Below are positions 13,762 through 30,641 of a DNA stretch of 35,766 nt, piece after piece. Position numbers and translations under genes: made by a program. The notes beneath the pieces are model-generated. The model saw only the letters and a list, made by a program, of their open reading frames with translations, had not been told where the DNA came from and did no database searches. How positions within the stretch are numbered: the stretch's first letter is position 1; each line of letters starts with the position of its first letter. The stretch is from an uncultured delta proteobacterium (GTDB taxonomy: Bacteria > Desulfobacterota > Binatia > UBA9968). The DNA is taken from positions 1-35,766 of the forward strand of contig CAVXEP010000024.1 in NCBI GenBank assembly GCA_963760795.1. Direction: 5' to 3'.

Positions 13762-15583
13762 TTGGAGACACCGTTAATCAATGATTTAAACATCTGCGTC
13801 GCCACCGAAAATGGTTCCGGTAGCGCGTCGTCGAACAACATTCTGTTCAAGGCGATTTTCAAGATGGGCATACCCTGCTCGTCGAAGAACATGTTCCCGT
13901 CGAACATTCAGGGTCTGCCCACTTGGTACCAGATTCGCGCCAACGGCGATGGCTATATGAGTCGCAAGGATGTCATCGACGTGATGGTGATGTTCAATGA
14001 CACCACGGCAGCGAAAGACATCTATCGCGTGCGCGATGGCGGGGTACTTTTATATGACGACTCGACGCCGCTATCGCCAACTTTAAAGCGCGACGGTGTG
14101 CAATACTTCGGCTTTCCGGCGAACAAGCTCGTGGCCAAGCTGGTCCCGGCTTCGCCGTTGCGCGCCAAGCAGCGCAACATGGTTTATGTCGGCGCCTTGG
14201 CCTATCTATTCGGCATCGATATGTCGGTCATCAAGGCGGTTCTCGAAGATACTTTCGGCAAAAAACCGGCGGTTATCGAGTCGAATCTGGTTTGCATCGA
14301 GGCCGGCTATCAATACTGCAAAGAACAGGGCTACAAACAGAACATCGCTCACCTCGAGCCGATTCCCGACGGTAACAAAGGTAAAATCATCACCGAAGGC
14401 AACACCGCGGCAGCTCTCGGCGCGATTTACGGCGGCGCCTCGGTAATCTGCTGGTATCCAATCACTCCTTCGAGCTCGCTCGCCGAAGCCATGGAGTATT
14501 ACTTGCCGCGCCTGCGCAAGCAGATCGATGGCAAAAAGACTTATGCCATCGTCCAGGCGGAAGACGAAATCGCCTCTGCCGGTATGATCGTCGGCGCCGG
14601 TTGGGCTGGCGCTCGTTCCATGACCTCGACCTCGGGGCCTGGCGTGTCGCTGATGAACGAGTCCATCGGTTTGGCCTACTACGCCGAGATTCCCAGCGTA
14701 TTTTTCATCATTCAGCGTGGCGGACCGTCTACGGGTCTGCCAACGCGAACACAGCAAGCCGATATTTCATTGATGTACGGCGCTTCCCATGGCGACACCC
14801 GCCATATTATTCTGATTCCCCATGACGTGAACTCCTGCTTCGACCTCGCGCGCCAGAGTTTCGATTACGCCGATCGCTTCCAGACTCCGGTCTTCGTCGC
14901 CATGGATCTCGACCTGGGCATGAACATGTGGTCGTCGGAACCGCTCAAGCTGACCCAGGAACCCTACGACATCGGCAAGCGACTGAAGCGCCCAGGACTT
15001 GGATGAGTGGACGAAAGCAGGGAAGAAATTCCGCCGCTATTTCGACCAAGACGGCGATGGCATTCCTTATCGCACCGTGCCGGGTAACGTGAATCGCCTG
15101 GCCTCCTATTTCACCCGCGGTTCGGGCCACGACGCCGACGCCAAGTATTCCGAGGACGAGCATGACTATAAGTACATTCTCGATCGTCTGCGCAAGAAGT
15201 TCGACACCTCCCGCAAGTTTGTTCCCAAGCCAATCATTGAAAAAGAGCGTGGCGTTAAGACCGGCATTATTTGTTACGGCTCGAGCTACGAGCCCGTGCG
15301 CGAAGCCCGCGACCGTTTGAAGGCACGCGGCTTAAAGACCAATCATATGCTGATCCGCGCCTTGCCGCTGACCAGCGAGGTGATGGATTTCTTGGCAGAA
15401 CACGACACGGTCTATCTCGTCGAGCAAAACCGCGACGCCCAGATGGCCGCGATCATGAAAGACGAGAACCCGCTGCTCGGTGCCAAGATCACCAGCATTC
15501 TCGTCTACAACGGTCTCCCCGTCAGCGCCGGCGAAGTCGTCAAGCAGATCTTCGACGCCGCCCAGACAGCTAAAACCGCCTAG
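13762..15583 (+). CDS. korA: 2-oxoacid:ferredoxin oxidoreductase alpha subunit (gamma-alpha fusion), +1 frameshift near 14985
   Basis: Motifs NGSGSASSN, WYPITPSS, QAEDEIAS, TSGPG and QRGGPSTGLPT. Removing one A from CTGAAGCGCC joins ORF 13762..15006 to ORF 14999..15583. Confidence 0.9.
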
Positions 15584-17452: not shown

Positions 17453-18447
17453 TCAATGATCATGCTTCTTCGCCAAGCCGCCATGGCCCATCGCCATGAT
17501 ATCGGCGCGCGTGATTTTCTCACCGGCGATCAAGCGCGGCAACAGCGCGTCGAAGGCGGTAAACGGATCGTGCAGCACGCAGCCGGACAATCCCATCACC
17601 GGCGTCTCGCCGAGATAAGCCATCAAGAACATCGAGCCCGGCAACACGGGAAATCCGTGAGTCTCGACTTTCGCGCCGCTGCGGCGAATCCCCTCCGGGG
17701 TCTTATCATCGGGATCCACGGACATGCCGCCACTGACGAGAATCACGTCGGCGCCCGCCTGCTTGGCATTTTTGATATGGCTGGCAATCACGTCTGGATC
17801 GTCTGGTGACAACTCGACTGAATCAACGCTCGAACCCATCTCGCCGACCTTTTTACTGACGATCGGGACCGAATCCGTCTTTGATTCTGCCGGTGAAAAC
17901 TTCGCTGCCGGTCACCACCAAGACGAACATGCCTAGCCGGCATCGGCAATAGTCGGACAATCGGCCTATCCTTACACAGCGCTTCAGCCTGTTGTATCAG
18001 AGATCTCTTTAACTAGTGACGGGAATTGTCCGCGTGCCTGCGACCACCGTGCCTTCTTTAACGAAGCGGTCACCCGGCAATGTCGCCAGCATGAGATCGC
18101 CCAAGGAATTGAAGCGATAGAGTAGATCGACATCGACTTTCAGCAAACCGGATATGGTCGCCACCAAATTAATCCGCCCCTCGCTCGGATCGGTTAGTTT
18201 CAAATTCGTCCCGGCCGCCGCTTTGGCGAGGCGCCGCGCCGCGTCCTCTTCATGAAGCTCGTCTTTTTCCAACTCCATCACGTAAATATTCGCTTTGCCG
18301 ACATCGAGCAATTTCGACACATCTTGCTGGCCGAATAATATGGCCGCGCCGAAACGCCGGCCCTTTATGTTTGCCGGGAATGATTTCGGTAATGTCGTGC
18401 GCCAGCGGCAAACCGACCGCTTCTTCGACGGGGATGACTTTGAGCAT
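17453..18447 (-). CDS. Molybdopterin-binding (MoeA-like/MoCF biosynthesis domain) protein with several frameshifts
   Basis: Fragments MLKVIPVEEAVGLPLAHDITEIIPG, ELHEEDAARRLA, EGRINL, AGTRTIP, VVTGSEVFTGRIKDGFG, SGGMSVDPDDKTP and PVLPGSMF. Indels near 18335, 17950-18010 and 17865. Confidence 0.8.
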
Positions 18448-18510: not shown

Positions 18511-19709
18511 TTGTCCAGACAGCCTGTGCTATTAGCCGGGGCCATGACCCTCGCAGAACTGGTCCGCTACTTTCTCTACCTCGGCGCCTTTGGTTTTGGC
18601 GGTCCGGTGGCGTTGGTCGGATTCATGCACCGCGATTTAGTCGAGAAACGCGGCAGTATCACCGAGGATACCTACAAACTTTCCCTCGCCTTGGCGCAGA
18701 TCATGCCCGGCCCGCTCGCCGCCCAGGTCGCCATCGCCATCGGTTATTTCGAGGCCGGCATCGCCGGCGCGACCTTGGCTGGAATCGCGTTCGTACTGCC
18801 GTCATTTCTAATGGTGGTTGGCATCTCGCTGGTTTACGTCTCCTACGGCGGACTGTGGTGGATGCAAGCGTTGTTCTACGCCATCGGCGCGACGGTCATT
18901 GCGATCATCGCCATAGCCGCGTACAAGCTCGCCCGCAGCACCAACAAGCGCGATCCGCTGCTCTGGGGCATCTTCGTCGCGCTCACCGTGGTGACTCTGT
19001 GGGCTCAGGCCGAGCTGGCGGAATTCTTCATTTTGGCCGGCATTGTAGTTCTTCTAGTGCGCGCCTGGCCGGGGTTGAAGCAAGGAATACTGATGGCGCT
19101 CGGCGGCATAGCGTTGGGTTTACTGATTTGGGTCACTCGAAGCTTGGCTGCGCCAAAGTGGAGCGGCCGCTAGTTCCGGCAACGTGCTCGTGCAAATTCT
19201 TTTGTTCTTCACCAAAGCCGGCGCCTTCGTATTCGGCAGCGGCCTGGCGATCATTCCATTCTTGCAGCAGGGAGTCGTCCAACAGTTCGGCTGGTTGAAC
19301 GATCACCAGTTCCTTGACGCCGTAGCCGTGGCCATGATTACACCCGGTCCGGTTGTCATCACGGTCGCCTTCATCGGTTTTCTCGTTGCCGGCTTGGCGG
19401 GAGCCGTCATGGCATCCATCGGAATCTTTCTGCCCGTCTATTTCTTTACGATCATTCCCGCGCCCTGGTTCAAGCGTCATCGAGACAATCCCGCAACTCA
19501 AGGCCTTTGTTGACGGCGCCACCGCCGCGGCTACCGGCGCCATCACCGGCGCGGTCTTGGTGCTCGGCGCTCGGGCGATTAAAGACGTGCCAACAGCGCT
19601 GATCGCCATCGTCAGTCTGGCGGTCCTCTGGCGCTATAAAATCCCCGAGCCGGTAATTGTTTCAGTCGCCGGAATAGTCGGCCTGATTCTTTACCCAATC
19701 CTTCATTGA
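18511..19709 (+). CDS. chrA: Chromate ion transporter (long-chain CHR family), two +1 frameshifts
   Basis: Motifs GFGGPVALVGFM, AQIMPGP, FVFGSGLAIIPFL and AMITPGP. An extra A near 19155 (CCAAAG) and an extra C near 19490 (AATCCCG) split one two-domain CHR. The start is TTG 18511 or ATG 18544. Confidence 0.88.
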
Positions 19710-19718
19710 GGTGATCGA

Positions 19719-20159
19719 ATGAAATGGGTCACGCGCAAACAGATTCGCGTCAATCGGGTCGCCACCGCCTGGCTGATACGCCGCTTCATCGACCGCCAGG
19801 CCGAATTTATCTTCGTCGAGCCGGCGGACGTTGCCGAAGTACAAAAACGTGAAAAGGCCCAAGGCTTCGATGCCCCCGGCGCGACCTATCCGCATAAAGA
19901 CAGTCAGGGCCGCTGCTCCTTCGAAGCCCTGGTGAGCGAATACTGTTCGAGCGATGCCGTGCTCAAGGAAATGGCGCGCATGGTGCGCGGCGCCGACTTT
20001 GCCGATGAATCTCACTTGACCGAAGAATCGGCGGGAATTCGCACGATCTCCCAAGGCTTTCCGCTGGTCACCAACGACGATCACGAGACCGTCGAAAAAG
20101 CATCTTTTCTCTACGACGCCCTCTACGCGTCGATCAAAGCACAGCAACCGAGCAACTAG
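19719..20159 (+). CDS. Chromate resistance protein, ChrB C-terminal domain only (ChrF-like)
   Basis: MKWVTR..RVNRVATAWLIRRFID, FDAPGA, CSFEAL, VRGAD and YDALY are typical of the Chrome_Resist domain. GAGG RBS; 9 nt after chrA. Confidence 0.85.
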   Translation: MKWVTRKQIRVNRVATAWLIRRFIDRQAEFIFVEPADVAEVQKREKAQGFDAPGATYPHKDSQGRCSFEALVSEYCSSDAVLKEMARMVRGADFADESHLTEESAGIRTISQGFPLVTNDDHETVEKASFLYDALYASIKAQQPSN

Positions 20160-20193: not shown

Positions 20194-21577
20194 TCACGGT
20201 GTCTGATTGCCGATCCCGCTCGGTGTTTTTGGCTGGGATTGCGACGCGCTTTCTGGCGCAGCATTGACGGAGTCGACAGCGTCCTTGGACAGCACCAGCA
20301 CTTTATCGATGCGCTTACCGTCCATGTCGACGATTTCGAAGCGTAAGCCGCGCCATTCGAAGGACTCTGCTACCGCTGGGACACGGCCCATCTGGGTAAA
20401 GATAAAACCGCCCAAGGTCTGGAACGCGTCGCGCTTTTCTCCCGGCAGGGTTTCGACATGAAAAATTTCCTTGAATTCATCGACGCTCAACATGCCGTCG
20501 AGCAACCAGGAGCCGTCATGGCGCCGCACCGCTTTTGGATCGGCGGCCTTTTCGCCGATAGGAATATCGCCGGCAATCGCTTCGAGGATGTCGTGGTGGG
20601 TGAGCAGCCCCTCGATACCGCCGTATTCATCGACGACCAGAGCGATATGCTTGTTGCTCTTTTTGAACGAGTCCAACAATTCCAGCGCGGATATGGTGCG
20701 CGGCACGAACAGCGGCTGCTGCATCAGCGCATTGAGATCGATCGCCTTGCCAGCCAGAGTATGCGCCAGTAAATCCTTCGCCTGGACCACGCCGGTAACA
20801 TTATCGAGACTGCCGGCGGCCACCGGAAAACGCGAGTGACCGCTCTCGGCGATCTTCGCGCACACCTGTTCCAGGGTATTTTCCAGGTCGAGCCAGGAGA
20901 TCTGCGTGCGCGGCGTCATCAGCGAGCGCGCGGTTTTATCGCCGAGACGGAGCACCGCATCGACCATATCCTCCGCGGTTTCTTCAAAGATGCCGGCTTC
21001 GGCTCCCTGCTGCACCAACGTCGTGATTTCCTCCTGAGTCACCGGCGCCTGCTGTGCCGGCGCTCGGCCAAACAGCCGGCAGACGAGTTCCGTCGATGCG
21101 CTGAGTAAATGCACCATCGGCGCTGACAGCCAGGCAAAGCCGCGCAGCGGCACGGCGACCCAGGTGGCGATGCTTTCGGGATGGCGCATGGCCAACCGTT
21201 TGGGCACCAATTCGCCGATCACGAGAGAAAAGAAGGTAATGATCAGTACCACCAGGCCCAGAGCGGTTTCTTGGTGGTAATGGGTCAAGACCGGGCAACA
21301 CCTTGAGGTACTCCGCCAACCACGCCGCCGCGCCGCGGCCGGCGAAGGCACCGGTCAGGATACCGATGAGTGTGATGCCGATCTGCACCGACGAGAGCAA
21401 TCGATTGGGCGTTTGCGCCAGCTCCAGCGCGACTTTAGCGCGGGCGTTGCCTTTGTTGACCCAATCCTGCAGCCGCGACTTGCGCGCCGTGATCACCGCC
21501 ATTTCCGACATCGCGAACACGCCGTTCGCCAGGATCAAAACAGAGATAGTCAATATCTCCCCGCCAATATCTGCCAT
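20194..21577 (-). CDS. Hemolysin-family CNNM(DUF21)-CBS-CorC protein, frameshift near 21290
   Basis: Motifs NGVFAMSEMAVITARKSRL, VQIGITLIGIL, GELVPKRLA, LMTPR, HSRFPV, VVDEYGG and DGKRIDKVL. AGGAG RBS before ATG 21577. Confidence 0.9.
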
Positions 21578-21707
21578 TGCCTTTACTCCTCCACCCAACC
21601 ATAGCAGGAAGAGCGCCAATTCGCAGCAGCGCCGGAGTTGTGAGCCAACCCATCGGATCGCGCCACCATCATCCCGAAAGAAGCGTAATTGAGTTTAGAA
21701 TCGCTGC

Positions 21708-21747
21708 TTGACGGAAACCGAGGATAGGGTTATATCGGATTTCGATA
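21708..21747 (+). promoter_or_regulatory. Sigma-70 promoter with overlapping palindromic operator
   Basis: TTGACG-17 nt-TATATC; the inverted repeat TATCG-GATTT-CGATA (21733-21747) overlaps the -10/+1 region. Confidence 0.6.
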
Positions 21748-21752
21748 ACGAA

Positions 21753-22091
21753 ATGCAGAAGTCAAAAAAACAGGAGAATCAGGATCGACGAGATCAGGAT
21801 CTTTACGGCGGTTTGATCCGTCTGCACATCCTGCACCACGCCTCAAAGGAACCGGTGTTCGGCTTATGGTTCATTGAGGAACTTGGAAGGCATGGATACA
21901 AGCTCAGTCCGGGCACTCTTTATCCACTGCTGCACGGACTCGAGCGGAAGGGTTACCTGCGATCGACCAATGAGCGTTCGGGCAAAAGCTCGAGGCGAAT
22001 GTATCAAGCGACTCCTCTTGGACGAAAAGCCTTGGCCGCGGCGCGGCAGAAAGTTAGCGAACTGTTCGGGGAATTGCTGGAAGACGAGTGA
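21753..22091 (+). CDS. PadR-family transcriptional regulator
   Basis: GLIRLHILHHA..PVFGLWFIEELGRHGYKLSPGTLYPLLHGLERKGYL...RRMYQATPLG is a winged helix-turn-helix. Confidence 0.9.
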   Translation: MQKSKKQENQDRRDQDLYGGLIRLHILHHASKEPVFGLWFIEELGRHGYKLSPGTLYPLLHGLERKGYLRSTNERSGKSSRRMYQATPLGRKALAAARQKVSELFGELLEDE

Positions 22092-22148
22092 TCCGCCGAT
22101 CGTGATTTCTTTGAACGGCGCTTTGGTCCGACTATCCGGGAGATCTGT

Positions 22149-22718
22149 ATGAAGGCAAGAGCCTTTCTATCAGGGGTCTTAATTCTTTTCGGGATTTTGA
22201 TCGCAGTGTTGTTTTTTCGAGTTCTTACCTTGGAATGGCGGCTCCGCGAATCCGGCCCTGCTAACGGTGGCGTCGTCGCGGCCGGTCAAGCGTCTTTGAA
22301 GCGCGTGGAAGCGGAGCTTGCCACGGTCAAGGAACTCGCGCCGGGGCTCGGAGAATATATGACGACGATCCAGTTGCACGTGGGAAAACTTTGGTTTGCC
22401 GCTAAAGCTGCGAACTGGGACCTGGCCATCTACGAGCTCCATGAGCTGGAGGAGACCATGGAAGTGGTCAAGAAATTAAACGCAGAAAAAAACGGCGTAA
22501 AAATTTCCGGGGTAATGGATGCCGTTCTGCGAACACAGATTGCTCAACTGGAGCAAACGATAAAACGGAAGAATCCTGGGGAGTTTCAAAAAGCCTATGA
22601 CGAGACTTTGAGCGCGTGCAACGGCTGCCACAACGAGTCGGGGCACAAATTTATTCAGATTGTTCGACCTACGGTGCCGCCGGTCACCAATCAAAAGTGG
22701 CAGATGTCGGACAAATGA
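22149..22718 (+). CDS. Membrane-anchored putative monoheme c-type cytochrome (class II / four-helix-bundle-like)
   Basis: N-terminal TM or signal segment, an apparently helical body, and a single CXXCH (CNGCH) near the C-terminus. GGGAGA RBS. Confidence 0.7.
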   Translation: MKARAFLSGVLILFGILIAVLFFRVLTLEWRLRESGPANGGVVAAGQASLKRVEAELATVKELAPGLGEYMTTIQLHVGKLWFAAKAANWDLAIYELHELEETMEVVKKLNAEKNGVKISGVMDAVLRTQIAQLEQTIKRKNPGEFQKAYDETLSACNGCHNESGHKFIQIVRPTVPPVTNQKWQMSDK

Positions 22719-22763
22719 CTGTCACCATGAGACAATCGCAAGTGGAGATACCCGCGGCAAATT

Positions 22764-23996
22764 ATGAGTGAATCCGGACAAATTGCCGCCGAAGACGCGC
22801 TCGTCGACCAAACCCCGGGATCATTTCTCGAGGTTCTTTGGGTTTCGACACGCCTGGGCCTAACCTCCTTTGGCGGTCCCATCGCTCACCTCGGTTATTT
22901 TCATGAGGAATACGTAAAGCGGAGAAAATGGATCGATGAGCAAAGCTACGCCGACCTCGTAGCCCTTTGCCAGTTTCTCCCCGGGCCAGCTAGCAGTCAG
23001 GTGAGTATCGCCATCGGTATCGCCCGCGCGCGTCTGCTCGGTGGAATCGCCGCGTGGCTGGGCTTTACCATGCCCTCGGCGCTGGCGCTGATCGCCTTCG
23101 CCTTTGGGATCGGCGCGTTTGCCAGCGCGGCCGACGCCGGTTGGTTGCACGGCCTCAAAATCGTCGCCGTAGCAGTCGTTGCCCAAGCTGTGTGGGGCAT
23201 GGCCCGCTCGCTCTGTCCGGATCGTGAACGCGCAACCATCGCTGTTCTCGCCTCAACAGTTACACTCGCATGGCCTACCGCAGTAGGGCAACTCTCGTCG
23301 ATTGCCGTCGCCGGCATTGTTGGCTTGATCATGTTTCCGGGCACGGTTTCTTCATCGCACTCCCATATACGCTTTCCTATCGGGAAAAAAACTGCCATCG
23401 CCGCTTGGAGCATCTTCTTCGCGCTTCTCTTTGGGTTACCGCTGCTCCGACAGGCGCAGCCCAGCCATACGTTAGAGGTTTTCGATAGTTTTTTCCGTGT
23501 CGGCTCGTTGGTTTTCGGTGGCGGTCATGTTGTTCTGCCGCTGCTTCAAACCGAAGTGGTTGGACCGGGTTGGATTACCAACGAACAATTCGTCGCTGGC
23601 TATGGCGCTACTCAGGCCGTACCGGGACCGTTATTTACATTCTCCGCTTACCTCGGCGCCGTGATGGGTCCTGAGCCCAATGGTTGGACCGGAGCCTTCC
23701 TCGCCCTCGTGGCGATTTTTCTTCCATCCTTTTTATTGGTCGTCGGCGCACTTCCTTTTTGGGATACTCTTCGCTCGGCGCCGGTCTTCCAGTCTGCTCT
23801 GAAAGGGATCAACGCGGCTGTCGTCGGATTGTTGCTGACAGCACTGTACAAACCTGTCTGGACAAGCGCGATCTACTCACCCGCGGACTTCGGCCTTGGA
23901 CTCGTTGCTTTCGGACTCTTGATGTTTTGGAAATGTCCCCCCTGGCTGGTGGTTGCCCTGACCGCTGTTGGAGGAGAAGTCATCGCGCGCATATAA
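22764..23996 (+). CDS. chrA: Chromate ion transporter (long-chain CHR family), intact
   Basis: Motifs LGLTSFGGPIAHLGYF, LCQFLPGPASSQ, VFGGGHVVLPLL, QAVPGPLFTF and GINAAVVGLL. Confidence 0.93.
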   Translation: MSESGQIAAEDALVDQTPGSFLEVLWVSTRLGLTSFGGPIAHLGYFHEEYVKRRKWIDEQSYADLVALCQFLPGPASSQVSIAIGIARARLLGGIAAWLGFTMPSALALIAFAFGIGAFASAADAGWLHGLKIVAVAVVAQAVWGMARSLCPDRERATIAVLASTVTLAWPTAVGQLSSIAVAGIVGLIMFPGTVSSSHSHIRFPIGKKTAIAAWSIFFALLFGLPLLRQAQPSHTLEVFDSFFRVGSLVFGGGHVVLPLLQTEVVGPGWITNEQFVAGYGATQAVPGPLFTFSAYLGAVMGPEPNGWTGAFLALVAIFLPSFLLVVGALPFWDTLRSAPVFQSALKGINAAVVGLLLTALYKPVWTSAIYSPADFGLGLVAFGLLMFWKCPPWLVVALTAVGGEVIARI

Positions 23997-24009
23997 GCGG
24001 AGGAACGTT

Positions 24010-24138
24010 ATGTCGATCATCCCGGACCATCACCGAGGCTAGGCAAATGCGCAACAGCTTGCGGAAACGGATTGGCTCGCGAAACATCTGGACGATCCCA
24101 CCGTCCGTATCGTCGATGCCCGGCCAGCCCGGTGTTAG
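24010..24138 (+). pseudogene. Truncated sulfurtransferase (rhodanese, SseA/CysA-type) N-terminus
   Basis: Not in the ORF track. After a GGAGG RBS the frame reads MSIIPDHHRG*ANAQQLAETDWLAKHLDDPTVRIVDARPARC*, matching the tandem-rhodanese N-terminal pattern (Y..P..LV.T.WL..HL.DP.VRIVD.R). Confidence 0.72.
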
Positions 24139-24162
24139 CAATTCGATCGCGTAAGCCTGTAA

Positions 24163-25371
24163 CTACTGACTCTCCTCCGGCGGCTTCACATGGCGGAACA
24201 CGGCAAAAATCGACAGGTCGTAGACAATCTTGATGCCGCCCGCCAGCAAGAACGGCAAACCTAGCGCTGGAACCGCGAGAATCGCGCCGGTGAATAACGG
24301 CGCAACCGCGGCGCCGGCGTTGCGCGCGACGGAGAGCACCCCAGCCGACGCTGCCCGCTCGTCGGCGTCGACGACGGCCATTGTGTAAGACTGGCGCGTC
24401 GGCACATCCATTTGCGAGAGCGAGTAACGTAGCAGTAAAACCGCGATGGCCCATTCCACGTTGGGCATCATTGGTACCAACAGAATCAGCAAGTTTGAAG
24501 GCAAGTGGGTGAACACCATCGTGTTGAGTAAACCGATTCGGCGGGCGATCGCGGGCGCGGCGAGAAAGGACAGGGCGGCGAAAATATTGGTGCCGAAGAA
24601 AATCCCGCCCAGAGCGTTCAGATCGGTTTGGTAACGGAGAAAAAACCAGTAGGCGACGATGCTCTGGACGATGAACGCGCCGGCGAAAGCGTCGAGGGCG
24701 AAAAGCCCGGCGAGCTTGATAACGATGCCGCGGGATTTTTCCAGACCGACCTTGCGTGCTGTCGGTTCGGTTTTCTTTGCCGCTTCGACGTCAGGTGAGA
24801 GCAAGGTGAACAGCCCCGCAAGTAAAAGTGCCGAAGCAACGTAACCCCAAATCAAGAATTTGTAACCGGCAATCGCGGTCAACGAGAAGAGCGAGGGCAG
24901 GCTGACCGTCAATGCGCCCAGCGCGCCGGCGAACGAGCCAACCAGATTGTACGCCGCGAAAACCGCGGTGCGGTTCTGATCGCTGGTGGCCTGCGGCAAG
25001 ATCGCTTGTTCAAGCGACAAAAACGGCCCGACTTCTTTTCCCGACGGGCTGATGGTGCCGAAGATCGCCGCGAGCATCAGGAGAATCGGATTGTCGCTGA
25101 CGGCAAACGCCCAACCGGCGAGCGCCATCAGCAGCGCGCCGACAATTAGCAAAGTCTTTCGCCCAAAGCTGTCAGCCACCGCGGTGATGATGATCGTCAT
25201 CACCGCGCCGCCGGCAAGGGCCGCAGTGAATATCCAGCCGATCGCCGTCGTGCTTAAACCGATGGCGTCGAGATAAAGCCCGAGGATGACCGAGAGAAAA
25301 CCATAGGCCAAAGAACGTACGCCGCAGGTGGCGAACAATAACCAACCGTCCCGGGAAAGGGGAAAACCCAT
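24163..25371 (-). CDS. MFS transporter
   Basis: About 12 hydrophobic segments, motif A-like ADSFGRKTLL, ISPSGKEVGPF and SQMDVPTRQSY. Confidence 0.9.
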   Translation of the reverse strand: MGFPLSRDGWLLFATCGVRSLAYGFLSVILGLYLDAIGLSTTAIGWIFTAALAGGAVMTIIITAVADSFGRKTLLIVGALLMALAGWAFAVSDNPILLMLAAIFGTISPSGKEVGPFLSLEQAILPQATSDQNRTAVFAAYNLVGSFAGALGALTVSLPSLFSLTAIAGYKFLIWGYVASALLLAGLFTLLSPDVEAAKKTEPTARKVGLEKSRGIVIKLAGLFALDAFAGAFIVQSIVAYWFFLRYQTDLNALGGIFFGTNIFAALSFLAAPAIARRIGLLNTMVFTHLPSNLLILLVPMMPNVEWAIAVLLLRYSLSQMDVPTRQSYTMAVVDADERAASAGVLSVARNAGAAVAPLFTGAILAVPALGLPFLLAGGIKIVYDLSIFAVFRHVKPPEESQ

Positions 25372-29284: not shown

Positions 29285-30641
29285 ATGGCCCGTCCACGTC
29301 CCACCGTTCTGGTCGTCGATGACGACGCAGCGACCCGCCAGGGTCTAACCGTTCTGCTCGACAGCTGGGGCTATCAGGCCAGTGGAGGCCGAAGACGGCA
29401 AGGCTGCGCTGGTCGCTTGCGACCGGGAACTGCCCCAAGCGATCGTCACCGACTTGATGATGCCGGGCATGACCGGCTTGGAATTCGTCGGTGCCCTGGG
29501 CGAGCGAGTGCAACAGGCCGCGGTGGTTTTCGTCACTGGTCAGGCGGCCATCGACACTGCGGTCCAAGCGATCAAGCTTGGCGCCTATGATTACCTGTCG
29601 AAACCCTTGGAGCCGCAACGCCTGCGCGAGGTGCTCGAAAAAGCCCTCAAGCAAATTGCCCTGTCGCGTGAAACTGGCGCCCTGCGCCAGCGCCTGGAGT
29701 CGCCGCTCGGTTCCTATGGCGCCTTGATCGGCAAGTCGGCGCCCATGCGCAAACTCTATCAGCAGATCGGCCAGATCGCCGCCACCAATGCGGCGGTGTT
29801 GGTGAGCGGCGAGAGCGGCACGGGTAAAGAATTGGTCGCGCAAACTTTGCACGACCTATCGCCGCGCCGCGATGGCAACTTTCTCGCCCTCAACTGCGCG
29901 GCAATCTCACCGACACTGATGGAAAGCGAGCTGTTCGGTCACGAGAAGGGCGCCTTTACCAGCGCCGTCGATCGTCATCTCGGCTGTTTCGAACAAGCCG
30001 ACGGCGGCACGCTGTTTCTCGACGAAATCACTGAAATGGCGCTGGAAGTGCAGCCAAAATTCCTGCGGGTTCTCGAGGAAGGGCAGATACGACGCATCGG
30101 CGGCACCAAGAATATTTCAGTTTCCGTGCGCGTGGTCGCGGCGACCAACCGTCAACCGTTAACAGCCGTAAAAGACGGCAAGCTGCGCCAGGATCTGTTT
30201 TACCGGCTGAACGTGTTTTACCTGGAACTGCCGCCGCTGCGCGAGCGCGCTGAGGATATCGAACTGCTCGCGGGATATTTTCTCGAATCCTTCGCGGCGA
30301 AGTATCAAAAGGCCAAACTCCCTTGGTCAAGCGATTTTGCCGCCGCCTTGCGCAGCCATCACTGGCCCGGCAACGTGCGCGAGTTGCGCAATGCCATGGA
30401 GCGCTTGACGGTCTTAACTAGCGGAGCGAGTTTGACCGCAGCGGACTTCAAACAGTTTTGCCTGTCGACGCTGGTCGAAGAAGCCACCGATCTCGCGCCC
30501 ATGTCCCTCGCCGAAGCCGAGCGCATCGCCATCGAACGCGCTCTTGCGGCGACGGCTGGCAACAAGACACAGGCCGCCCAGCTCCTCGGCATCACGCCGA
30601 AGACGCTAAACGCCAAATTGACCCTCTACTCGCAAGAGTAA
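29285..30641 (+). CDS. Sigma-54-dependent response regulator (NtrC/AtoC family), +1 frameshift near 29380
   Basis: Receiver domain ([15 protein letters not shown]), [21 protein letters not shown] (GAFTGA-like), WPGNVREL, and a Fis-type [15 protein letters not shown]. Confidence 0.92.

Follow-up and report, generated by a model that had tools for sequence, protein, structure and literature searches.

A predicted membrane-tethered cytochrome c as a candidate partner of CHR oxyanion exporters in a PadR-type operon of an uncultured Binatia bacterium

We analysed a short gene cluster in a stretch of 35,766 nucleotides from an uncultured delta proteobacterium (Binatia, UBA9968; assembly GCA_963760795.1, contig CAVXEP010000024.1, positions 1 to 35,766), which is called the window throughout. 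At 21708-24138, padR, a gene encoding a protein with a CXXCH haem motif, chrA and the remnant of a rhodanese gene all lie on the + strand in the same direction. An earlier reading of the window from its letters alone (the sequence-only reading) had described four co-directional, closely spaced genes here, and all four elements were found, the fourth as a remnant. Homologues of the CXXCH protein were strongly enriched beside genes encoding exporters of the CHR family. Our best explanation, to which we give slightly less than even chances, is that padR, the cytochrome gene and chrA form a PadR-controlled resistance operon in which a tethered c-type cytochrome partners the CHR exporter. The elements of the cluster are listed below with their positions and strand.

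21708..21736, + strand: predicted operon promoter, with -35 TTGACG at 21708-21713, a 17-nt spacer and -10 TATATC at 21731-21736
21739..21754, + strand: operator-like palindrome ATTTCG-ATAA-CGAAAT (6-4-6), conserved in 11 loci
21753..22091, + strand: padR, encoding a PadR-family repressor of the single-domain type, 112 aa (PF03551, 63.6 bits, cut-off 27)
22149..22718, + strand: gene for a predicted membrane-tethered, class II-like monohaem cytochrome c, 189 aa, with CXXCH at residues 157-161
22764..23996, + strand: chrA, encoding an intact long-chain CHR-family oxyanion transporter, 410 aa (PF02417 twice, 265.9 bits)
24010..24138, + strand: rhodanese remnant, the first 42 codons, with an in-frame TAG at 24040-24042 and the remainder of the gene missing

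Two samples carry the linkage between the cytochrome and CHR genes. In a genome scan with one genome per species (27 loci), a CHR gene stood on the same strand as the cytochrome gene, adjacent to it or within ~1.1 kb, at 23 loci. The metagenome loci were the best 80 of 579 confirmed stretches, 62-93% identical and with near-duplicate contigs included, and a CHR gene lay downstream of the cytochrome gene at 43 of the 45 loci with at least 1300 bp of downstream sequence. These metagenome counts describe the close subfamily only, for which the narrower alignment A4 was used, the broad alignment A3 being too diverse. A PadR gene was found upstream of the cytochrome gene at 16 of the 27 genome loci and at 51 of the 59 metagenome loci with at least 450 bp upstream. 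The neighbourhood comparison suggested by the sequence-only reading thus came out in its favour.

The genome loci carry the labels Binatia, 'delta proteobacterium', Chloroflexota, Syntrophobacteraceae, Verrucomicrobiota, Proteobacteria, Omnitrophota and Bacteroidota; all 27 are metagenome bins, and these taxon labels are only as good as the binning. In most loci the cytochrome gene preceded chrA, while in Bacteroidota the order was ChrA, cytochrome and then a gene for a pyrimidine-dimer glycosylase. The partner CHR genes were of three types that share only 26-29% identity with each other, and the types differ from the ChrA of the window to the same degree. In a quickly computed maximum-likelihood tree of the cytochromes, members paired with the two main CHR types are intermingled, and the well-supported branches force at least seven label changes, with the labels of L035 and L106 to be discounted as unreliable, since they derive from a second, upstream CHR gene. 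Close relatives among the cytochromes are hence found with CHR genes of unrelated lineages. This favours a functional tie over frozen synteny, and the interleaving implies that the pairing survives exchange of the transporter. The cytochrome may be a conserved functional partner of CHR oxyanion exporters, a proposal whose chances we place close to, though below, the halfway mark.

The CXXCH protein has a hydrophobic N-terminus and the haem motif C157-N-G-C160-H161. Among 62 family members (27-75% identity), M71, E99, C157, C160, H161 and P174 were invariant, and the motif is followed by a conserved tail of 28 residues (F168, I171, P174, PPVTNQ at 177-182, W184). The protein matched no Pfam family above threshold and no NCBIfam model; PF01322 (Cytochrom_C_2, cytochrome c') scored 18.6 bits, under its cut-off of 26.5. 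Top matches of a PDB profile search were all class II cytochromes or b562 and were weak (E 0.024 and up). They included class II cytochromes c, cytochrome c', small Kuenenia cytochromes and c-type variants of b562, and all of them cover the last helix and the CXXCH motif, while a PDB search with the single sequence gave one chance match. The PF01322 score below the cut-off, together with the weak profile matches, marks the protein as a distant relative of the curated family and not a member of it. Of 30 diverse members, 20 also matched PF01322 over the corresponding C-terminal region, six of them above the cut-off.

The family comprises 759 proteins among clusters at 90% identity (E <=0.001), all of them named 'hypothetical protein' or evidently mislabelled, and an exhaustive search gave 1528 cluster representatives at 50% identity (E <=0.001). 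In a protein atlas the homologue P0018 led only to clusters annotated as 'hypothetical protein' and to a single weak hint of a cytochrome c. In some members the family domain is part of a long multi-haem protein together with class I cytochrome c domains, and P0216 is fused to CopD. By eye, the alignment shows a lipobox-like Cys in place of the N-terminal helix in some distant members. The host genome contains three cytochrome c assembly genes (Cytochrom_C_asm). We conclude from the sequence and the structure model below that the protein is, by prediction, a membrane-tethered, periplasm-facing, class II-like monohaem cytochrome c, with haem attachment and topology both inferred. Its haem is probably ligated by His and Met, as predicted from the invariant Met71 and the His of CXXCH. 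We regard the protein as the founding example of an unnamed family that is apparently sister to the class II cytochromes c.

An AlphaFold (AF2) model was built from an alignment of 12 rows (mean predicted local distance difference test, pLDDT, 86.4; predicted template modelling score, pTM, 0.65). It divides the protein as follows.

Residues 3-34 (about): membrane helix
Residues 38-63: stalk helix
Residues 67-86: bundle helix 1
Residues 90-110: bundle helix 2
Residues 119-139: bundle helix 3
Residues 143-163: bundle helix 4
Residues 164-189: conserved non-helical tail

The model thus has the four-helix bundle of class II cytochromes c, and its single CXXCH closes the last helix, close to the C-terminus. 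Met71 opens bundle helix 1 and His161 stands where helix 4 ends; the two haem ligands of b562-type proteins are placed likewise. Foldseek returned weak E-values with the model (best 0.06). A second structural aligner matched it to NaxL (6r6m_A; Z 12.4, root-mean-square deviation 2.3 A, 104 residues) and to cytochrome b562 (256b_A; Z 11.0, 2.2 A, 97/106 residues), although helical bundles can attain Z scores of 11-12 through their arrangement alone. In its modelled four-helix bundle the protein resembles class II cytochromes c (c', c556; 1jaf), b562 (256b) and NaxL/NaxS of Kuenenia (6r6m). In class II cytochromes c, as here, helix 4 carries the CXXCH at its C-terminal end, and b562 and c556 presumably also have a Met early in helix 1. 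Unlike the soluble class II proteins, it has a predicted N-terminal transmembrane helix, a stalk helix of 25 residues and the conserved 28-residue tail. Moreover, it is linked to transporters and not to respiratory or nitrogen-cycle genes.

ChrA carries two tandem Chromate_transp halves in one membrane protein, as is characteristic of long-chain CHR proteins, and scored 354.6 bits with the chromate efflux model TIGR00937, against a cut-off of 171.7. It is a candidate chromate exporter. No full-length ChrB is encoded in padR-cyt-chrA; only a gene for a ChrB C-terminal domain was found, after the other CHR gene upstream.

We aligned 200 bp of the promoter region from 11 related loci. TTGAC (21708-21712), ATATCG (21732-21737) and TCGATA.CGAAATGC (21742-21756) were invariant. 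The two promoter hexamers thus show little or no variation, whereas the spacer of 17 nt and all upstream DNA diverged freely. A consensus promoter scan of the region had found no promoter, because the -10 hexamer ends in C; the alignment revealed one. The palindrome is located between the -10 box and the padR ATG, which it overlaps at 21753. This is where a repressor would block the promoter, and the palindrome is hence a putative binding site of PadR. The comparison of the 11 loci supports the single promoter and operator that the sequence-only reading had placed ahead of the genes. It also corrected the padR start, which had been put at TTG 21708, to ATG 21753: the spacer is unconserved between conserved blocks, and an invariant -35 box with a variable spacer denotes a promoter and not coding sequence, so TTG 21708 was rejected as a start and belongs to the -35 hexamer. 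In L002 and L008 padR was called at 112 aa as well. The Rv3488-family model NF053635 scored 103.7 bits on PadR, below its cut-off of 140, and PadR is not the equivalog of that subfamily.

The exact palindrome has one copy in the 6.58-Mb genome. When two mismatches were allowed, five more sites were found (G000:C2:48109, C3:98759, C4:45576, C12:416953 and C32:393204) versus none for a reversed control pattern. These could be other PadR targets or chance matches.

The spacers within the cluster are short, with 57 bp from padR to the cytochrome gene and 45 bp from there to chrA. A scan of 21300-24400 predicted no terminator in either of these gaps, and three terminators in total versus 4.1 expected from shuffles. 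An independent soil DNA run, X1, spans the stretch including the rhodanese remnant, with base changes and zero insertions or deletions. Furthermore, three metatranscriptome runs, belonging to three studies, yielded RNA-library contigs that are 95-100% identical to portions of padR, the cytochrome gene and chrA. One of them, of 586 nt, extends from 22187 to 22772; it begins within the cytochrome gene, spans the entire cyt-chrA spacer and ends just inside chrA. These contigs may stem from DNA, show no single transcript and leave parts of the operon uncovered, and they are only consistent with expression.

Relatives carry a fuller operon. A divergent CNNM gene is followed by padR, the cytochrome gene, a gene for a protein that we call P125, chrA and a rhodanese gene, and past the rhodanese come a glyoxalase-fold protein, a multicopper oxidase and a convergent MFS gene. 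Among the 37 metagenome loci with a complete ChrA followed by at least 300 bp of sequence, P125 was present at 27, an intact rhodanese after ChrA at 12, the glyoxalase-fold gene at 12, the multicopper oxidase at 10 and the convergent MFS gene at 15.

P125 is a His-rich, all-helical protein of 125 aa without a signal sequence and without a Pfam family. Most relatives have its gene between those of the cytochrome and ChrA, with a stop codon that overlaps the start of chrA (L003:6605-6982 and seven other loci). Matches in the PDB were to designed helical proteins only, with no informative solved relative, and P125 was not found anywhere in the host genome (88.9% complete). Possible leftover codons of the P125 gene before chrA in the window were too weak to be accepted, as the conserved TATGAGTGA there doubles as the chrA start.

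The rhodanese remnant reads MSIIPDHHRG*ANAQQLAETDWLAKHLDDPTVRIVDARPARC*. It corresponds to roughly the first 40 residues of the intact 280-aa enzyme found in relatives (68% identity to residues 2-39), and its TAG stands where the relatives have Tyr. The catalytic domain with the active-site Cys is missing from it, and its end lies 25 bp from the convergent MFS gene. L002 carries the same stub, and run X1 has no insertions or deletions over it, which implies that the stub is not an assembly artefact. No intact orthologue was found in the host genome, in which the best other rhodanese is 25-37% identical. The window's copy thus appears to be a trimmed form of the longer operon, without the 125-aa His-rich protein and with the rhodanese reduced to a dead stub. 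A 42-codon stub with a stop yields nothing in this genome, and the role of the rhodanese as maker of a sulfur substrate for export, which the sequence-only reading had suggested, falls away here. From the coupled redox and efflux system which that reading envisaged, the genomic coupling remains, and it is real and broad, but the rhodanese is dead in this genome.

In the operon-type rhodanese of the relatives (280 aa, loop TY-C-GGGRRG), the codon of the catalytic Cys was TGA at four of the 10 covered loci (L020:8862-9704, L071, L072 and L074, three of the four being near-identical contigs) and TGC at the other six. Both frame and homology run on to residue 279 in the TGA genes, which suggests a candidate selenocysteine enzyme.

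The association with CHR genes is a property of the close subfamily and not of the whole superfamily, and its limits weigh against the proposed partnership. Although 77 of 201 sampled genomes of the window's class had a family member (E <=1e-8; the unpublished G929 is counted among them), the close subfamily was rare and patchy, with only two of the 201 above 200 bits: the window's own genome (272.6 bits) and G767 (213.7 bits). In G767 the cytochrome gene adjoins a CHR gene, and MoaA, SDR and sensor-kinase neighbours are shared with the window. None of the four other genomes of the window's genus had a family match. One genome of that genus, G891, has a ChrA orthologue (74% identity) without PadR and without the cytochrome, which implies that the exporter functions, or at least persists, without the cytochrome. 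An adjacent CHR gene was missing at four of the 27 genome loci. At L015 the contig stops 175 bp past the cytochrome gene; L019 reads PadR, amino-acid permease, cytochrome, methyltransferase and DsrE, with arsenic genes alongside; L021 reads universal stress protein, cytochrome and Cu/Zn superoxide dismutase (SodC); and L025 reads flavoprotein disulfide reductase, methyltransferase, DoxX and cytochrome. The metagenome loci L062 and L063 were without a CHR gene as well.

More distant members (22-35% identity) were mostly found away from CHR genes. In the phylum sample, none of four distant paralogues (22-28% identity) had a CHR neighbour, and their neighbourhoods had no common theme. In an even sample of Bacteroidota, 28 of 301 genomes carried a family member, at 29 loci, of which four had a CHR gene within 1.5 kb: two directly adjacent and two in the arrangement cyt-DoxX-ChrA. 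One locus (L142) reads cyt-DoxX-TauE/SafE, four stand beside SCO1 and PCuAC copper chaperones, three of them with a CDF exporter too, one adjoins a rhodanese (L122) and one an FMN reductase. The recurring company of the paralogues is ion exporters and periplasmic redox or metal-handling proteins.

Two side observations concern these samples. The ChrA orthologue of G891 (L151, G891:C4, 11554-12741) lies near orthologues of the MFS and MoaA genes in a rearranged order, with a BNR-repeat-like gene of 428 aa upstream. The Bacteroidota loci with DoxX-ChrA, DoxX-TauE/SafE or SCO1/PCuAC/CDF are L123, L140, L142, L128, L129, L131 and L132.

If the cytochrome does partner the exporter, the operon could work as follows. 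PadR would occupy the palindrome downstream of the -10 box, at the start codon of its own gene, until an oxyanion or stress signal releases it. ChrA would then expel chromate or a close oxyanion to the periplasm, where the N-terminal helix would hold the cytochrome at the outer face of the membrane. There the cytochrome could give single electrons to the expelled Cr(VI), or to Cr(V) or superoxide generated from Cr(VI). The toxic anion would thus be converted outside the cytoplasm to impermeant Cr(III) and would not re-enter ('redox trapping'). What the sequences show is the gene content, the conserved promoter and operator-like site, the haem motif and fold features throughout the family, and the conserved linkage with CHR genes. 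In this scheme we infer the haem attachment, the periplasmic location and the binding of PadR, and likewise which substrate is handled, where the electrons come from and in which direction they flow. The cytochrome is most likely a tethered periplasmic electron carrier that acts on the exported oxyanion or on its reactive by-products; that it specifically reduces Cr(VI) we consider rather doubtful.

Redox trapping is favoured because the longer operons carry multicopper oxidases, and because the contexts of the paralogues (CopD, SCO1/PCuAC, CDF, DoxX-TauE) fit a periplasmic ion-redox theme. The scheme may be extended to the family as a whole, which would then consist of periplasmic redox proteins dedicated to ion exporters (CHR in this operon; in the paralogues TauE by way of DoxX, CDF and CopD), with export-coupled redox trapping, and Cr(VI) reduction at the mouth of ChrA as its founding case. 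We think this extension unlikely.

The chemistry meets further objections. None of the operon's genes encodes an obvious donor of electrons to the cytochrome, and a six-coordinate His/Met haem leaves no site open to an oxyanion, which means that reduction would be outer-sphere. The chromate specificity of the operon's CHR clade is a matter of homology only, and the RNA-library contigs prove neither transcription nor a single transcript.

Three alternatives to the partnership with the exporter were weighed. The cytochrome might instead be a scavenger or gas-binding protein that mops up periplasmic superoxide or NO in place of ChrC and passes the electrons to the respiratory chain. Such a function would agree with the putative superoxide dismutase gene chrC of classical chr determinants (excerpts of PMC3817168), with the homologue at L021 that stands between a universal-stress-protein gene and a periplasmic Cu/Zn superoxide dismutase gene and has no CHR gene nearby, with the NO-binding cytochrome c' and the NaxLS complex among the closest folds (excerpts of PMC11897245), and with DoxX neighbours that recall the mycobacterial oxidative-stress complex DoxX-SseA-SodA (excerpts of PMC6930017). 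However, the invariant Met at the position of the sixth ligand speaks against the open five-coordinate haem of gas-binding cytochromes c', and a general role is not expected to stay with CHR genes through swaps of the transporter and changes in gene order. We therefore regard a scavenging function as improbable, if still deserving of some weight.

The operon might also handle sulfur or selenium oxyanions. Its CHR clade would then move sulfite, thiosulfate, sulfate or selenite, not chromate, and the cytochrome would form the periplasmic terminus of a short oxidoreductase chain, taking electrons from the anion at the membrane or giving them to it. The intact two-domain rhodanese after ChrA at 12 of the 37 assessable loci points in this direction, as do its TGA catalytic codon at four of 10 covered loci, suggestive of selenocysteine, the pairing of paralogues with DoxX and TauE/SafE, a sulfite-exporter family (L142), or with a rhodanese (L122), and the company of DsrE and arsenic genes at L019. 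Yet the rhodanese is absent or dead in most loci, including the window, and is thus dispensable, and ChrA scores twice the cut-off of the curated chromate-efflux model. Moreover, the second CHR gene with its ChrB-domain gene 2 kb upstream and the flanking CDF and CorC-type transporters indicate metal stress, and no molybdenum or sulfite-oxidase-type catalytic subunit is encoded nearby. A sulfur or selenium module hence seems quite unlikely.

That there is no coupling at all, the protein being either a general respiratory electron carrier or a metal-binding CXXC protein without haem, simply carried along in metal-resistance islands, is very unlikely: distant family members do occur in many unrelated contexts, some as domains of long multi-haem proteins, and a genome of the same genus has the exporter without the cytochrome, but against this stand the same-strand adjacency at 23/27 and 43/45 loci across phyla, gene orders and CHR types, spacers of just 57 and 45 bp behind one conserved promoter, and the invariance of both the His after CXXC and the Met.

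We file the operon as a variant of the chr type, in which PadR beside chrA and the accessory genes chrB, chrC, chrE and chrF are already known and the cytochrome would be a new addition. In Bacillus cereus SJ1, the gene of the PadR-family regulator ChrI is, as in the window, directly upstream of and co-directional with a CHR transporter gene, chrA1, and both are chromate-induced (excerpts of PMC2936356). Unlike the window, the SJ1 operon, as far as those excerpts describe it, has no cytochrome gene between regulator and transporter, and its host is Gram-positive and has no periplasm. Classical chr determinants are described, in the excerpts of PMC3817168, as chrBACF in TnOtChr of Ochrobactrum tritici and as chrB, chrA, chrC, chrE and chrF in Cupriavidus; like the operon, they join a CHR exporter to accessory genes, in their case against redox damage (superoxide dismutase ChrC). 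In contrast to these determinants, the window has PadR and not ChrB, a predicted membrane-tethered c-type cytochrome, and a decayed rhodanese. ChrE of the classical determinants is rhodanese-like.

Haem c proteins outside the cytoplasm are known to reduce Cr(VI), namely cytochrome c3 of Desulfovibrio and MtrC/OmcA of Shewanella. These are, however, multihaem respiratory proteins of unrelated fold that are not known to be encoded with a CHR exporter. The paralogues that adjoin DoxX, rhodanese and SodC genes resemble DoxX-SseA-SodA of Mycobacterium tuberculosis, in which, according to the excerpts of PMC6930017, a redox component of the membrane, a sulfurtransferase of the rhodanese type and a protein that handles superoxide act together in stress defence. 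The window's operon has no DoxX, and DoxX-SseA-SodA, as described in those excerpts, has neither a cytochrome c nor an exporter. Full-text literature searches, with subscription journals outside their coverage, found no chr determinant with a c-type cytochrome, in line with the sequence-only reading, to which no such characterised operon was known.

Chromate resistance is usually described as efflux by ChrA combined with cytoplasmic reductases and damage repair. If the partnership with the exporter is true, a conserved periplasmic haem protein in chr operons would add an extracytoplasmic redox step, which could explain how exported chromate is barred from re-entry via sulfate carriers. The cytochrome would then be a new candidate Cr(VI) reductase for bioremediation, and a comparative-genomics marker for a distinct class of oxyanion-resistance operons. 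The family is large, common in soil metagenomes and unnamed in Pfam and NCBIfam, and its protein is small enough for quick expression. A conserved haem protein beside exporters in several phyla points to an unstudied redox helper in oxyanion resistance.

The operon is flanked in the window by the following genes.

24163..25371, - strand: convergent MFS transporter gene (PF07690, 83 bits), the usual right-hand neighbour of the operon
20197..21619, - strand: divergent CNNM/CorC-type transporter gene, which shares the promoter region and has one frameshift here
18526..20159, + strand: second CHR gene (18526-19706), with two frameshifts, followed by a gene for a ChrB C-terminal domain

The second CHR gene is unrelated to the chrA of the operon. 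Compared with L002, a locus 92.5% identical, it has two frameshifts and the CNNM gene one, the latter being unbroken in L002 and others, while the reading frames of padR, the cytochrome gene and chrA are intact in the window. L002 has a frameshift of its own in the ChrB C-terminal-domain gene. The frameshifts may mark pseudogenes or be indels of the assembly. Elsewhere in the window, the alpha gene of a pyruvate:ferredoxin oxidoreductase is split over two open reading frames (13762-15583), a molybdopterin-binding-domain gene (17453-17839) encodes 128 aa versus ~330 aa in relatives, and a sigma-54 response regulator (29382-30641) begins after the first 26 positions of its receiver domain.

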